A stretch of DNA of 33,027 nt. Origin: an uncultured bacterium. Its GTDB lineage: Bacteria; NPL-UPA2; JAADIA01. Below the pieces are notes generated by a model. That model was not told where the DNA came from and made no database searches. It saw only the letters and a program-made list of their open reading frames with translations. The DNA is taken from positions 1 to 33,027 of the forward strand of contig CAZGXS010000001.1 of NCBI GenBank assembly GCA_964529935.1, given 5' to 3'. The translations under genes were made by a program, and so were the position numbers. Below, piece by piece: positions 6,300 through 15,035 of the stretch; the first letter of the stretch is position 1; each line of letters starts with the position of its first letter.

Positions 6300-6344
6300 T
6301 TAGTGAATAGTGAATGGTGAATAGTGAATGGTGAATAGTGAATG
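6300..6344. repeat. (GTGAATR)x6, equivalent to (GTGAATAGTGAATG)x3
   Basis: Six perfect heptamers alternating A/G at about 6303-6344. The last unit contains the ddl GTG start codon. Confidence 0.95.
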
Positions 6345-7354
6345 AAGTAATCCGGGATGCGAAAATAGCCGTCTTGATGGGAGGACCATCCAGTGAGAGG
6401 GATATTTCCCTGAAGTCGGGGAAGGCGGTGGAGGAAGCTCTCCAAAAAGTCGGTTTAAAGGTTGTGCCTATTGTTGTGGATGAAGATATGGAGGAAAGAT
6501 TAAAGGAAGAGAGGGTAGGGGTAGCTTTTATTGCCCTTCACGGAAGGTTCGGTGAAGATGGCACTGTCCAGGAGATACTGGAACGATTAAGTATTGCCTA
6601 TACAGGCTCAGGAGTAGAAGCCAGTAGAATAGCTTTTGATAAGGCGGTTTCCAAGAAAATTTTCCTCAAGGAAGATATAGCTACTCCCGCTTTTTATGTT
6701 TTGGAAAAGGGGGATAAGAAAGAGAAGATGGTCTCTCAGTTTCCTTTCCATCCAGTTATAAGAAATCCGCTCGTTGTTAAACCGGCCCGGGAGGGTTCTA
6801 CCCTAGGTGTATCCATTATTAGAGGGGAAGAAGAATATTTAACTGCCCTTGACAGAGCTTTTCAGTATGATAGGAAAATATTGGTAGAAGAGTATCTAGA
6901 TGGTCGGGAAGTCACCGTGGGCATCTTAAATGGTTCTCCTCTGCCGGTTATCGAGATCCTTCCCCAGAGAGAATTTTTCGATTTCCAGGCCAAGTATACG
7001 GAGGGTTTAACTAATTTTAAGGTTCCTGCTCCTCTACCCCCGGATATTTACGAGGAGACTCAGGCTCTGGCTCTTCAGGCTCACCGGGCGCTGGATTGTC
7101 AAGGTATGTCCCGGGTAGATATAAAAGTGAATAGCTCCGGAAAACCCTATGTCCTGGAGGTGAATACTATCCCCGGAATGACTTCCTTAAGCCTCTTGCC
7201 GAGGGCAGCCCGGGCAGCGGGGATAAGTTTCCCGCAGTTATGTTGTAAATTAATTGAAATTGCCTTAAGAGATAAGGCACAGAGGCACAAAGGCACAGAG
7301 GCACAAAGGAAGAAAAGGCACAAAGGGAAAAAGGCACAAAGGGGAAAACAATAG
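6338..7354 (+). CDS. ddl: D-alanine--D-alanine ligase with repeat-encoded basic C-terminal tail
   Basis: ATP-grasp enzyme: KIAVLMGGPSSERDISLKSG, HGRFGEDGTVQ, EVNTIPGMT. GTG 6338 is the only start upstream of the conserved N-terminus (in-frame TGA at 6332-6334). The last ~26 aa are translated from AGGCACAR repeats. Confidence 0.93.
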   Translation: MNEVIRDAKIAVLMGGPSSERDISLKSGKAVEEALQKVGLKVVPIVVDEDMEERLKEERVGVAFIALHGRFGEDGTVQEILERLSIAYTGSGVEASRIAFDKAVSKKIFLKEDIATPAFYVLEKGDKKEKMVSQFPFHPVIRNPLVVKPAREGSTLGVSIIRGEEEYLTALDRAFQYDRKILVEEYLDGREVTVGILNGSPLPVIEILPQREFFDFQAKYTEGLTNFKVPAPLPPDIYEETQALALQAHRALDCQGMSRVDIKVNSSGKPYVLEVNTIPGMTSLSLLPRAARAAGISFPQLCCKLIEIALRDKAQRHKGTEAQRKKRHKGKKAQRGKQ

Positions 7355-7418
7355 CCAATACTTACAGTTTTTTAAGTTTTTTAACTCTGTGCCTCTGTGC
7401 CTAATTTGCATGTGCCTT
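7271..7418. repeat. AGGCACAR hairpin element, full copy 1
   Basis: (AGGCACAR)x4 plus two spaced AAGGCACAAAGG units at about 7275-7342. Loop core AATACTTACAGTTTTTTAAGTTTTTTAACT. Inverted arm CTCTGTGCCTCTGTGCCT (about 7385-7402) plus TGTGCCTT. Confidence 0.9.
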
Positions 7419-7443
7419 CTCGCACCGGAGGTGCGTTAGTTTA

Positions 7444-8259
7444 ATGTCCAAAAGCAGGATTAAAAAAAATACTAGCATTAAGCAGAGAGAGAGAGTCAAA
7501 AGAAGAAAAAAGGCAAAAGCGAAGAAGGTTCTCAAAGGGATAGGAAAATTATCTCTGGTCTTTCTGATGGTAGCTGTGGTGGCGGTGGCTGGAAAAAAAG
7601 TAGAGGATTTCCTGCTTACTTCTCCTCATTTTCGTATAAGTGAGGTGAATTTTGAGGGGCTTAATTCTCTGGAAAGGAAGACATTGGAGAGTTTAGCTAA
7701 GATCGAGTTGGGAAAGAATATATTCCAGGTTGATCTGGGGGAAATCAGGAGACGTTTACAAAGCCATCCTCAGGTAAGGGAGGCTATTATCTCCCGACAA
7801 TTTCCCCGGCGGGTAGAAGTGAAAGTTAAGGAGAGAGAAGCTGTGGCTCTTGTTCAGGATGAGGGCCAGGTATATCCGCTGGACAAGGAAGGATTCATTT
7901 TGCCCGAGGGTTCCCTTTCCCGGCCTCTTCCTCTGATTAGGGGTCTTGGCCGGAGAGGAATAAAAGTGGGAGAGAGGCTGGAGGGGACAAAATTAGTCAT
8001 AGTCCTGGAGATCTTAGAGATTTTTTCCTCATTTGGTTTACCCATTTCCAGGATAGATCTGGAAGAGCCGGGTCTCCTTGTCAGGATAGGAGAAGTAAAA
8101 GTATTTTTAGGAAAAGAAAGCGAGAGAGAAAGGCAAGTGAAGGAACTGAAGGCTATCTTGAACGATCTCAAAGAAAGGCAGGAGAAAGCGGAATACATAG
8201 ATTTGCGATTTCACAACCCTGTGGTTAAACTTCGACAGGAAAATATAAATCTCAGGTGA
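7444..8259 (+). CDS. ftsQ: Cell division protein FtsQ (POTRA domain)
   Basis: 271 aa. Basic N-terminus, a single TM segment (LSLVFLMVAVVAVAG), then a POTRA-like region. Located between ddl and ftsA, with GGAGG 11 nt upstream. Confidence 0.85.
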   Translation: MSKSRIKKNTSIKQRERVKRRKKAKAKKVLKGIGKLSLVFLMVAVVAVAGKKVEDFLLTSPHFRISEVNFEGLNSLERKTLESLAKIELGKNIFQVDLGEIRRRLQSHPQVREAIISRQFPRRVEVKVKEREAVALVQDEGQVYPLDKEGFILPEGSLSRPLPLIRGLGRRGIKVGERLEGTKLVIVLEILEIFSSFGLPISRIDLEEPGLLVRIGEVKVFLGKESERERQVKELKAILNDLKERQEKAEYIDLRFHNPVVKLRQENINLR

Positions 8260-10952: not shown

Positions 10953-12513
10953 GAAGCAATTATTAGCGGGGGAGATAGGGACTTGTTACAAGAAAGAAGC
11001 GGAGGTTTCGGTGCTCCTTGTCTATCCTAATAGCTACTTTGTGGGGATGTCCAGTTTAGGATTTCAGACGATCTATTATCAGTTGAACCAGCGTTCGGAT
11101 ACCTACTGCCAGCGGCTGTTCCTTGACTCTTCTCCTCCCCTATCGCTGGAGAAAGGATGGCCGGTAAGCAATTTTGATATCATCGCTTTCTCTGTATCCT
11201 TTGAGCTGGATTATCTGAATATCTTGAAAATATTAGATGTAGTTGCCATTCCTTTAAAAGGAGGAGAAAGGAGCGATGGCCATCCTTTGATTATAGCCGG
11301 AGGGATAGCCGTTTCGGCCAATCCGGAGCCTCTCGTGGAATTCATTGATCTTTTTGTCATCGGGGAAGGGGAAGAGGTTATTCATGAGGTTATTGATGCA
11401 TATAAGACAGTCGCTAATCAACGTCCCCTCCTCAGCAGAAAAGAAATTCTTAAAAAGCTAGCTGAAATTGAGGGTATTTATATCCCCGGATTTTATCAAG
11501 TCTCTTATAATGAAGATGGAACAGTAAAAGCCGTTGAGGCCAGAGACGTTCCCGGAAAGATTAAGAGAAGATGGATAAGGGATATTGACAACTATCCAAC
11601 TGTTTCCCGCATCTTGACCAAAAATACGGAGTTTGGGGATATGTATTTGCTGGAGATCAGTCGGGGATGTCCGGAAAATTGTTATTTTTGTTTGGCCAGC
11701 CATATTTATCGCCCCTGGCGAGTGAGAAGTTTAGAAAAGATATTAGAACAAGCGGAAGAAGGACGGAAACACCGAGAGAGGATAGGACTTATTTCGAATC
11801 TTGCCTCCCGCCATCCCCGGGTGGAAGAGATTTGTTCGCAGGTGTTAAAAATGAAAGGGAGGATCTCCCTATCCTCTCTCCGACCAGGAACTTTGAGCAA
11901 GACTTTGATTCGGTCCCTGGAGGAGAGCGGACAACGGACGATTACCTTGGCTCCGGAAACGGGGTCGGAGACCTTAAGGAAAACTCTTAATAAAGACATC
12001 AGCAACGAAGATATTCTGAGGTCAGTGGAATTGATAGCTAACTTCGCCGTTCCCAACCTTAAGCTCTATTTCATGATTGGTTTCCCCGAGGAAAAAGACG
12101 GAGACATGGCAGCTATTATCGATTTAGTGACTAAGGTAAAAAAGATATTGATGAGGGCAAAAAAGTCAGGTAGAATTACTGTTAGCGTCAATCCTTTCGT
12201 TCCCAAAGCTTCTACTCCTTTCCAGAGGGTAAGGATGGAGGAGGGAAAGACGCTTTCCCGGCGCCTCAAAATCCTGAAAAAGGGACTCCGGGGTTTAGGG
12301 AATGTCAAATTGATTCACGAAAGTATTAAGTGGAGCCTTTGGCAGGGGCTCCTTTCCCGGGGCGACCGACGGTTAGGAAATGTTCTCCTCTCAACCTATA
12401 GATGGGAAGGAGATTGGAAGAAGGCTTTAAGGGAAGAAGGGCTGGATAAGTTTTTCTATCTGCATCGGGAAAGAGGAAAAGAGGAAATATTGCCCTGGGA
12501 TCACCTAATTTAA
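10942..12513 (+). CDS. B12-binding-domain radical SAM protein of unknown function (resembles the TIGR03960-type uncharacterised family)
   Basis: 523 aa. CX3CX2C motif in SRGCPENCYFC. The N-terminal LLVYPNSYFVGMSSLGFQTIYYQLN is typical of this family. ATG 10942 overlaps the last 11 nt of ftsZ. Confidence 0.8.
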   Translation: MDIRKQLLAGEIGTCYKKEAEVSVLLVYPNSYFVGMSSLGFQTIYYQLNQRSDTYCQRLFLDSSPPLSLEKGWPVSNFDIIAFSVSFELDYLNILKILDVVAIPLKGGERSDGHPLIIAGGIAVSANPEPLVEFIDLFVIGEGEEVIHEVIDAYKTVANQRPLLSRKEILKKLAEIEGIYIPGFYQVSYNEDGTVKAVEARDVPGKIKRRWIRDIDNYPTVSRILTKNTEFGDMYLLEISRGCPENCYFCLASHIYRPWRVRSLEKILEQAEEGRKHRERIGLISNLASRHPRVEEICSQVLKMKGRISLSSLRPGTLSKTLIRSLEESGQRTITLAPETGSETLRKTLNKDISNEDILRSVELIANFAVPNLKLYFMIGFPEEKDGDMAAIIDLVTKVKKILMRAKKSGRITVSVNPFVPKASTPFQRVRMEEGKTLSRRLKILKKGLRGLGNVKLIHESIKWSLWQGLLSRGDRRLGNVLLSTYRWEGDWKKALREEGLDKFFYLHRERGKEEILPWDHLI

Positions 12514-12514
12514 G

Positions 12515-12632
12515 GATAAGGCACAAAGTGACAGAGGCACAAAGGCACAAAGGAAAAGATAAAAGCTAATACTTGCAGTTTTTTTAGTTTTTTTTAACTT
12601 TGTGCCTATGTGCCTTAGTGCCTCTGTGCCTG
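12515..12632. repeat. AGGCACAR hairpin element, full copy 2
   Basis: Starts GATAAGGCACA as in copy 1. The loop core AATACTTGCAGTTTTTTTAGTTTTTTTTAACT is about 90% identical to copy 1. Inverted arm CTTTGTGCCTATGTGCCTTAGTGCCTCTGTGCCT. Confidence 0.9.
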
Positions 12633-14405: not shown

Positions 14406-15035
14406 ATGTTGGGAAGGAAGGAAAAAATACAATCAAAGCTGGAAGGAGAAGCGGATAAGAAAAAAGTAAAGCCGAAATCGAAAAGAGGAGGAAGGAAGCT
14501 ATCCCTTTCCCAGGAAAAGTGGCAAGAGATAAGTGAGAAAGCGAAATTAGCTGAGGAGCGATTTGACCGTCTCTTGAGACTTCAGGCGGAATTTGAGAAC
14601 TATCGTAAGAGGGTTAACAGGGAGAGAGGCGAGTTCATTCAGTATGCTTTAGAAGATTTCATCTGTGACCTCTTGCCGGTAGTTGATAATTTCGAACGGG
14701 CTATTGCCTCAGCCCACCAGCACGACAATTCTCCGGCTCTGCTTCAGGGAGTAGAGATGATTTATAAGCAGGTGCAGGATGTTTTAGCCAAGAGGGGGCT
14801 GGAGAAGATAGAAGCTCTGGGTAAGAAGTTTGATCCCCGGGAACACGAAGCCGCGATGCAGGTAGAAAGTAAAGAGCATGCGGATAATACGGTTATTGAA
14901 GAGAGCTTAGCTGGGTATAAACTCAAAGATAAGGTGATTCGACCAGCCATGGTTAAAGTTTCTACAAAGAAGGCACAAAGGCACAAAGTAGCAAAGGCAC
15001 AGGGTGAAGAAGTTAAGGACAAGAAAGCCCAATAA
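14406..15035 (+). CDS. grpE: Nucleotide exchange factor GrpE with repeat-encoded C-terminal tail
   Basis: RLQAEFENYRKR, FDPREHEA, and the conserved end RPAMVKVS. This is followed by about 24 extra residues (KKAQRHKVAKAQ...) encoded by AGGCACAA units. Confidence 0.93.
   Translation: MLGRKEKIQSKLEGEADKKKVKPKSKRGGRKLSLSQEKWQEISEKAKLAEERFDRLLRLQAEFENYRKRVNRERGEFIQYALEDFICDLLPVVDNFERAIASAHQHDNSPALLQGVEMIYKQVQDVLAKRGLEKIEALGKKFDPREHEAAMQVESKEHADNTVIEESLAGYKLKDKVIRPAMVKVSTKKAQRHKVAKAQGEEVKDKKAQ
14971..15002. repeat. (AGGCACAA)-type tandem octamers x4 inside the grpE 3' end (left arm only)
   Basis: AGGCACAA AGGCACAA AGTAGCAA AGGCACAG, read directly. No inverted TGTGCCT arm follows. Confidence 0.85.

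Follow-up and report, generated by a model that had tools for sequence, protein, structure and literature searches.

Rickettsia palindromic elements (RPEs) and other intragenic MITEs are known to form in-frame fusions with the ORFs of their hosts (PMC10969869). REPINs are doublets of REP sequences that occur as hairpins and are found with REP-associated tyrosine transposases (PMC3116915, PMC3337134, PMC3733652), and in Pseudomonas the commonest REP 16-mers total 1,067 copies, of which 14 overlap genes (PMC3116915). Intergenic arrays of heptanucleotides have been described in heterocystous cyanobacteria (STRR) and in Beggiatoaceae, where they consist of TAACTGA direct repeats (PMC4679880).

The window analysed here is a stretch of 33,027 nt from an uncultured bacterium, in which the D-Ala-D-Ala ligase gene ddl reads into an array of AGGCACAR octamers ahead of ftsQ. 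The C-terminal tail of Ddl most probably arises as a by-product of a REPIN/MITE-like palindromic element, dispersed in the genome, which fills the spacer between ddl and ftsQ; the tail is a further case of a known type of event, in which a repeat is read into a host protein. The closest counterparts are RPEs for the tail, REPINs for the architecture and the STRR and TAACTGA arrays for the size of the unit. At the level of sequence, the element lies within the ORF, in frame, and adds residues to an intact protein, as RPEs do. The likeness to RPEs extends to a palindromic repeat of ~100-150 nt in a small genome, to many copies translated in unrelated housekeeping proteins, and to an added peptide that is hydrophilic and evidently compatible with the fold. 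Unlike in RPEs, the arms are made of tandem 8-nt words, with a peptide period of eight residues and slippage of units, and the residues are added by C-terminal read-through at the stop codon, not by internal insertion; a relation to RPEs in sequence is not expected.

The architecture is that of a REPIN, in that the element is repetitive and mostly extragenic and is predicted to form a hairpin of inverted arms around a spacer. Conserved inverted arms, tens of copies that are overwhelmingly extragenic and a word kept across deep lineages are shared with REPINs, and a candidate RAYT-like Y1 gene is present, whereas REPs are single imperfect palindromes of 20-60 nt and not tandem octamers, and, unlike Pseudomonas REPs, nine of 26 gene-adjacent arms overlap genes here. 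The STRR and TAACTGA arrays resemble the present ones in their 7-8-nt units, in having from a few to about ten copies, in their intergenic enrichment and in their numbers of hundreds per genome, but those are described as direct repeats, whereas the arrays here form dispersed inverted pairs with a loop core and enter coding ends. A last comparison concerns E. coli, in which a REP within ~15 nt of a stop codon reportedly stalls terminating ribosomes, as Liang, Rudd and Deutscher are said to have found in 2015. The stable palindrome just after or over the stop of an upstream operon gene is similar, but here the stop lies in the hairpin loop and the arm is translated.

The Ddl C-terminus and the ddl-ftsQ hairpin

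The ddl ORF occupies positions 6338-7354 of the forward strand, on which all window features described here lie, and encodes 338 aa ending in CCKLIEIALRDKAQRHKGTEAQRKKRHKGKKAQRGKQ according to the ORF listing. The conserved D-Ala-D-Ala ligase body, as delimited by Pfam, PDB alignments, an AlphaFold2 model and orthologues, comprises residues 1-312 (6338-7273) and ends in LIEIALRD, and the tail comprises residues 313-338, KAQRHKGTEAQRKKRHKGKKAQRGKQ, encoded together with its stop at 7274-7354. The codon of D312 lies at 7271-7273, the 26 tail codons at 7274-7351 and the stop codon TAG at 7352-7354. The reading previously made from the sequence alone was right that a tail exists, but placed its start at 7268, which falls in the codon of R311.

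The body matches Dala_Dala_lig_N (PF01820) at 75.7 bits (cut-off 34.6) and Dala_Dala_lig_C (PF07478) at 191.1 bits (cut-off 24), the latter domain ending at residue 307, and E. coli DdlB (306 aa; 2dln/1iov) aligns over chain residues 4-305 with residues 9-309 of the query (E = 3e-66). Both domains thus exceed their curated cut-offs and the alignment to solved enzymes is full-length, which places the protein among the Ddl enzymes. Across 30 solved Ddl/VanA chains, the alignment stops at query residues 306-318 and in none does it extend beyond 318. A canonical Ddl terminates a few residues past LIEIALR, with seven or fewer residues past ALR in solved structures and in 10 of 18 clade orthologues, whereas the present protein continues for 27 residues past ALR after a complete body. 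The proposed comparison with orthologues therefore confirms the extension, since the body is shared up to LIEIALR and solved Ddl structures stop by 318.

The tail has a net charge of about +11 and a calculated pI of 12, against 5.4 for the body, and raises the calculated pI of the whole protein from 5.4 to 8.9. In an AlphaFold2 model built from 29 sequences (mean pLDDT 86.9), the tail prolongs the last helix, with pLDDT falling along it from 80 to 71 to 64, and on the basis of this model we read it as a weakly ordered appendage. The peptide has a period of eight residues, three units or 24 nt giving AQRHKGT[E/K]. The view that the tail is translated directly from the octamer array is borne out, residues 313-338 coinciding with the array found by Tandem Repeats Finder (TRF), AAGGCACA repeated 8.5 times at 7274-7342 (unit count as assembled). 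The window contains 17 occurrences of AGGCACAR where 1.35 are expected, and none of 100 shuffles reaches this count.

Rather than a free-standing microsatellite, the array is one arm of a hairpin element that is dispersed in the genome. The left arm, as defined by word counts and TRF, lies at 7275-7342 and consists of four perfect AGGCACAR units followed by degenerate A-rich units. It is followed by a loop at 7343-7384 that contains both the stop codon of Ddl and the conserved core of the family, GCCAATACTTACAGTTTTTTAAGTTTTTTAAC, which recurs in ~20 genomic copies and is kept at the orthologous locus L093. The right arm, CTCTGTGCCTCTGTGCCT, lies at 7385-7402 and is the reverse complement of the left-arm word, as indicated by inverted repeats I4, I5 and I10 and by the RNA fold, in which 7282-7306 pairs with 7385-7410 (-62.9 kcal/mol; z = -5.0 against dinucleotide shuffles). 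The whole element measures roughly 130 nt. Beyond it, at 7421-7435, lies a short hairpin, CGCACC-GGA-GGTGCG, that encloses a Shine-Dalgarno-like GGAGG motif 9 nt before the ftsQ ATG and is also kept in L093. The downstream dcw-cluster gene ftsQ itself occupies 7444-8259 in the ORF listing, with POTRA_1 and FtsQ Pfam domains recorded on orthologous genes. The element was rejected as a canonical intrinsic terminator, as its T-runs lie inside the loop and not after the 3' arm, and a terminator scan of the ddl-ftsQ region flags only the small 7421-7435 hairpin. An Rfam search of the element returned no family at threshold; the only matches were sub-threshold ones to plant miRNA precursors, which means a generic long hairpin.

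The ddl frame enters the arm as GCC-TTA-AGA-GAT-AAG-GCA, with no in-frame stop ahead of the arm and with the nearby TAA trinucleotides out of frame. The codons available in AGGCACAR are AGG, GGC, GCA, CAC, ACA, CAA/CAG, AAA/AAG, AGA and GAG. The residues that they specify, R, G, A, H, T, Q, K and E, match the alphabet of the Ddl tail exactly. Because the sense word contains no T, it can form no stop codon in any frame and encode no hydrophobic residue, and the basic composition of the tail needs no selection, as a word without T is limited to the eight residues just listed.

Orthologous loci and other repeat-coded proteins

Among 18 clade orthologues, the number of residues after LIEIALR is 27, 19, 3, 23, 23, 3, 3, 5, 7, 38, 2, 4, 4, 7, 1, 22, 29 and 20, and no tail sequence is common to these tails of 1-38 residues. 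The nearest relatives, P0003 and P0006, end three residues past ALR; the tail of P0010 is rich in Pro and Gly, and that of P0021 is not basic. In the window, the C-terminus after ALR is DKAQRHKGTEAQRKKRHKGKKAQRGKQ, from 8.5 units and a TAG in the loop. Locus L093 (P0005; Ddl 77% identical), which comes from a separate JGI metagenome, carries this element at the corresponding site with 4.5 units and ends in DKAQSDRGTKAQRKDKNQYLQVF at a loop TAA. Also in common with the window are its loop core, its right arm, its small hairpin downstream and its entry frame GAT-AAG-GCA; its array is ~44 nt shorter. As this difference is not a multiple of three, both the peptide and the stop change in L093. The indel pattern, which had been suggested as a check, shows in L093 an array that differs by a non-multiple of three and a rewritten peptide, and a dN/dS comparison of the tails is not meaningful because orthologous tails differ by frame-changing indels.

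Loci L091 and L092 (P0002; 79% identical), from two ENA assemblies, are entered as GAC-AAG-GCA-CAA-AGG-CAC, the frame used in the window, and end in DKAQRHKATEQERENIGRR, with another palindrome nested in the loop. At L002 (P0004) the tail is long and the words have drifted to GGCAGAG; L094 (P0006) ends in DKA and is followed by a hairpin of GGATTAAG words; L001 ends in RERKG and is followed by a hairpin of GAACACGAAG words; and L003 ends in GR and lacks an element in the ddl-ftsQ spacer. Most relatives carry some word-hairpin in this spacer, of differing word families. No clean empty site was found at ddl-ftsQ, the relatives having either other word-hairpins (L001, L094) or no spacer (L003).

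GrpE, the second protein for which a tail of the same word family had been proposed, does carry one. Its ORF lies at 14406-15035 and ends in RPAMVKVSTKKAQRHKVAKAQGEEVKDKKAQ, and its tail region (14971-15035) contains a left-arm remnant of three AGGCACAR units (14971-15002), translated as KAQRHKVAKAQ and onwards to a TAA at 15033-15035. The Pfam match ends at residue 186 of 209 and the C-terminus reads RPAMVKVS-TKKAQRHKVAKAQGEEVKDKKAQ. Every relative has a body that ends in RPAMVKVS, and among the nine tails compared (3-26 residues) no two are alike. The description of the tails as belonging to two unrelated housekeeping proteins is a large underestimate, as at least nine core proteins (about ten besides Ddl) are affected: AGGCACAR-coded ends are also present on S2, L3, L22, ArgG, PheT, ThrS and PrmC, and in these proteins, as in Ddl and GrpE, the sequence runs from intact Pfam domains into AGGCACAR-coded residues. 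In one case a GmhA-like ORF is joined in frame by the element to an RfaE-II-like ORF. Overall, a period-7/8 array overlaps the last 90 nt of ~40 of 621 genes, and in a further 33 genes an array starts no more than 10 nt past the stop. The number of unrelated proteins affected speaks for a mechanical cause and against a function specific to any one protein.

The element family in the genome

The source genome is a 794-kb MAG of 140 contigs, 86% complete, from a genome of roughly 0.9 Mb, and the closest named relatives of its Ddl are MAGs of candidate division NPL-UPA2. The AGGCACAR octamer forms about 48 clusters in the 794 kb and the hairpin element is found about 40 times, with 57 arms of at least two exact units and ~20 full copies with the conserved loop core, and 7-/8-nt arrays account for 423 of 797 TRF rows. 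A second full copy in the window lies after a radical-SAM gene at 12517-12631, and its loop shares GCYAATACTTRCAGTTTTTTWAGTTTTTTTAAC with the ddl copy. The TAA of the radical-SAM gene (12511-12513) lies 5 nt before the arm, and this copy is therefore untranslated.

The element family is closely associated with stop codons. Twenty-eight arms have an incoming gene no more than 300 nt away; 15 of them begin 4-10 nt past the stop, two begin at 11 nt, nine overlap the gene and two lie further off (~50 nt), so that 17 of the 26 gene-adjacent copies are untranslated. When all word families are considered, 73 of 146 arrays lie no more than 10 nt from a stop codon or overlap it, against 8 of 133 at start codons, from which arrays stay 11-80 nt away. 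The TAA within the element (GATAAGG) was rejected as the usual stop, as the upstream stop lies 4-11 nt before the arm and may be TAA, TAG or TGA; this variety indicates that the stops are part of the genes rather than of the element. The T-rich loop core is on the sense strand of the flanking genes in 17 of 20 full elements (two-sided binomial p ~0.003), and 6 of 17 full copies have, after the right arm, a hairpin with compensated stems that is equivalent to 7421-7435. Translated arms always carry AGGCACA on the sense strand and never TGTGCCT. This orientation was rejected as a sign of selection, since it follows trivially from the polarity of the palindrome: whichever side of 5'-AGGCACA...TGTGCCT-3' a gene enters, it encounters the purine word first.

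Some copies are nested with palindromes of other words, and such nesting (C17:8987-9204; L091) argues for mobility. No direct duplication of a MITE target site is evident at the element flanks, while inverted arms are present. A GTAG/CGTC tag of the kind described for REPs (PMC3733652) was not seen at the palindrome ends, which read ...AAGAYA|AGGCACA and TGTGCCT|GTTCGCACC, and GTAG was found only as a variant inside the loop core. One full Y1_Tnp, RAYT-like gene is present (G000, C6:17805-18470), which scores 63.9 bits with PF01797, over the cut-off, and 73.3 bits with NCBIfam REP_Tyr_transpos, below the cut-off of 80. No AGGCACAR array abuts this gene; its flanks carry AAAGGGGACAGACACCTTTTT and its inverse, as do those of the G004 homologue, and the gene was rejected as the mobiliser of AGGCACAR because this flanking motif is a different one. 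RAYT-like homologues are found in all six genomes with AGGCACAR (in one as fragments) and in two of seven genomes that lack the word, a co-occurrence that is phylogenetically non-independent and suggestive only.

Probable origin of the tails and possible role of the hairpins

The element, with its arms of tandem AGGCACAR octamers, usually sits flush against the stop codon of the upstream gene. At ddl no stop precedes the arm, and the reading frame runs through the entire left arm to the TAG of the loop, as the sequence shows directly. With a unit of 8 nt that rotates the frame, gain or loss of a unit would rewrite the peptide and shift the stop, and the orthologues fit this expectation. The tail is likely to be solvent-exposed, poorly ordered and strongly basic, and would be tolerated by the enzyme rather than kept for its sequence. 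In our reading it is a by-product that is tolerated, and nothing points to selection on the peptide. Between the two possibilities originally raised, neutral read-through and affinity for nucleic acids or membranes, the neutral one is favoured by tail lengths of 1-38 aa, by tail sequences that differ and by an orthologous element that differs by a non-multiple of three; the analysis brought up no evidence for an affinity of either kind.

Two tests for selection, both with weak outcomes, bear on how strictly neutral the tail is. When one or two units are added to or removed from the ddl array in simulation, the tails become 40-57 residues long, traverse the loop and the right arm and have hydrophobic, Cys-rich ends (...FLTLCLCA, ...VPLCLICMCLLAPEVR), and the present frame is the only one of the three that stops before the rest of the loop and the right arm. 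This hints at selection against harmful tails, in which case the tail is not strictly neutral. Of the three tails possible in each of nine read-in genes, the one given by the observed frame is the shortest in five, the middle in two and the longest in two, which is not significantly different from the expectation of one-third (p ~0.15). The long tails in 8 of 18 clade Ddl proteins could also reflect some benefit from any tail.

A basic appendage of about +11 could in principle give Ddl, GrpE and the ribosomal proteins affinity for nucleic acids or anionic membranes, for instance holding Ddl near the divisome. The high pI of the tail and its effect on the whole protein would suit such a role, as would the recurrence of long tails in the clade and the position of ddl in the dcw cluster beside ftsQ, ftsA and ftsZ. 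An adaptive tail is nevertheless very improbable indeed, given that the sequence, length and even the charge of the tails differ (P0010 and P0021), that the orthologous array rewrites its peptide through a difference that is not a multiple of three, that the composition is forced by a word without T, and that P0003 and P0006 make do with three residues after ALR. It is only slightly less improbable that a short-read assembler altered the octamer count or introduced a 1-nt error, so that the real tail differs or a stop lies at the arm boundary. Many of the 140 contigs of the MAG break inside octamer arrays, the exact Ddl protein is on record from one contig only, and a change of one unit shifts the frame. 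Against this, the array, at 69 nt, does not reach the length of a typical read and is embedded in a 33-kb contig, and all frames are open through the arm, so that some tail would result at any unit count. The entry frame GAT-AAG-GCA is, moreover, common to L091, L092 and L093, and its presence at three independently assembled loci makes a frameshift error peculiar to this MAG unlikely.

The remaining alternative, which is unlikely rather than implausible, is that the peptide is irrelevant and that a stop within an intercistronic hairpin is a regulatory device that couples translation of ddl to the fate of the mRNA. Pairing of the left arm would be prevented by translating ribosomes; in their absence, the long hairpin and the Shine-Dalgarno hairpin would jointly limit ftsQ expression or mark a site of processing or stabilisation, much as REP sequences close to stop codons may do in E. 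coli. The strength of the hairpin, the 26 of 28 arms that overlap a stop codon or lie within 11 nt of it, the excess of arrays at stops (73 of 146) over starts (8 of 133), the sense-strand loop core in 17 of 20 copies, the short compensated-stem hairpin ahead of the Shine-Dalgarno motif of the next gene in 6 of 17 copies, and the word-hairpins of differing families in the same spacer of most relatives are all consistent with such a device. The placement and strand bias would, however, be equally expected from an insertion preference, from replication-coupled single-strand (Y1-type) transposition and from genome compaction; L003 dispenses with the spacer element; and most gene-adjacent copies (17 of 26) are untranslated. 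Flush placement at stop codons may have a function of its own, and an insertion preference, replication-coupled single-strand transposition and a role at the RNA level all fit the placement and orientation.

The by-product reading of the tail leaves the element family itself, stacked on stop codons, sense-oriented and built from one word across the phylum, as the matter of more interest. We consider it unlikely, though worth stating, that the flush, sense-oriented placement is functional and that the word-hairpins punctuate operons throughout this phylum. A terminating ribosome, the long intercistronic hairpin and the small compensated hairpin ahead of the next Shine-Dalgarno motif would then jointly set mRNA processing or stability and downstream translation. 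If so, read-through tails of the Ddl type would be its visible cost, and the retention of an 8-nt word between lineages in which GrpE is only ~47% identical would point to a trans-acting reader that is itself conserved. In annotating this lineage, C-terminal extensions are to be taken as repeat read-through and not as new domains, with lengths that depend on an unstable number of units. For the evolution of these proteins, a repeat word without T forces a hydrophilic, basic and stop-free tail on any frame that it invades, and in a genome of ~0.9 Mb tails of this kind are tolerated on essential enzymes, chaperones and ribosomal proteins.

Period-7 and period-8 arrays in the genome and the phylum

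Periods of 7 and 8 are the most common among the tandem repeats of this genome, accounting for 423 of the 797 rows returned by Tandem Repeats Finder for the whole genome. Among arrays with at least 2.5 copies, 246 of 347 are intergenic, and for 146 of the 621 genes one of these arrays lies no further than 150 nt from the gene's 3' end; half of these 3'-end arrays begin no more than 10 nt past the stop codon or overlap the gene end. Start codons are approached less closely, with the arrays keeping a distance of 11-80 nt. Six genomes of the phylum each contain 22-109 occurrences of the dimer of the AGGCACAR octamer, the word that builds the arms of the dispersed hairpin element. The relatives among these six are G001, G002, G004, G006 and G008, and one of the six dimer-rich genomes has a GrpE of only 47% identity. 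The remaining 15 genomes searched hold at most one occurrence of the dimer each, and the reversed pattern, used as a control, gave 0 matches in every genome.

Several contigs of the assembly start or end within AGGCACAR arrays (C21:4-35, C74:47-82, C83:7-130, C100:2455-2470 and C117:5-85), and the elements are probably the cause of much of its break-up into 140 contigs. A gene for a RAYT-like Y1 transposase of 221 aa (C6:17805-18470) is bracketed by AAAGGGGACAGACACCTTTTT and an inverted copy of it. A homologue of 70% identity in the relative G004 (locus L096) is bracketed by the same motif and its inverse, and the motif occurs five times in the genome of the window, in some cases at contig ends.

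Coding sequence and small hairpins at the elements

An array of six GTGAATR heptamers (window 6301-6344) extends from the murB stop codon into the start of ddl. The GTG start codon of ddl at 6338 belongs to the last of these units, so that the N-terminus of Ddl, too, is repeat-defined. The N-termini of Ddl orthologues are not alike. On contig C122 (745-1869), outside the window, a SIS/GmhA-like ORF continues in frame across an arm of AGGCACAR units and a loop core that is reversed, and enters, still in frame, a cytidylyltransferase (RfaE domain II-like) ORF. The reading frame predicts a fusion protein with the element-encoded linker NEGTEAQRHRGTKLKNLKSCKLGKD.

Immediately 3' of the right arm, 6 of 17 full AGGCACAR elements possess a short hairpin, its 5-7-bp stem capped by a tri-loop, located at 7421-7435 in the window and in the right flanks of the copies on contigs C4, C28, C63, C109 and C117. 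The stems vary with compensation (CGCACC/GGTGCG, GCCGCC/GGCGGC, CGTGCC/GGCACG and GTGCACC/GGTGCAC), and the hairpin is followed by YTAAC or TTAG, then by the SD and then by the ATG of the next gene. In the ddl-ftsQ copy, GGAGG lies within the short hairpin.

Nesting and turnover of words

Elements are also found nested: at C17:8987-9204 and C17:3843-4020, an AGGCACAR element encloses a GGTTCAC-word palindrome in its loop. In a relative, the orthologous ddl element is interrupted by a palindrome of the ACGCAGAT word (L091:2400-2640). The ddl-ftsQ spacers of the relatives' loci L001, L094, L002 and L004 hold hairpins built from differing words, GAACACGAAG, GGATTAAG and ACAGAGGACACAG, and a CCCCTCACCC/GGGTGAGGGG palindrome is also present among them. 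Because the spacer hairpins use different words in different relatives, the ddl-ftsQ spacer shows that word families turn over at one locus.
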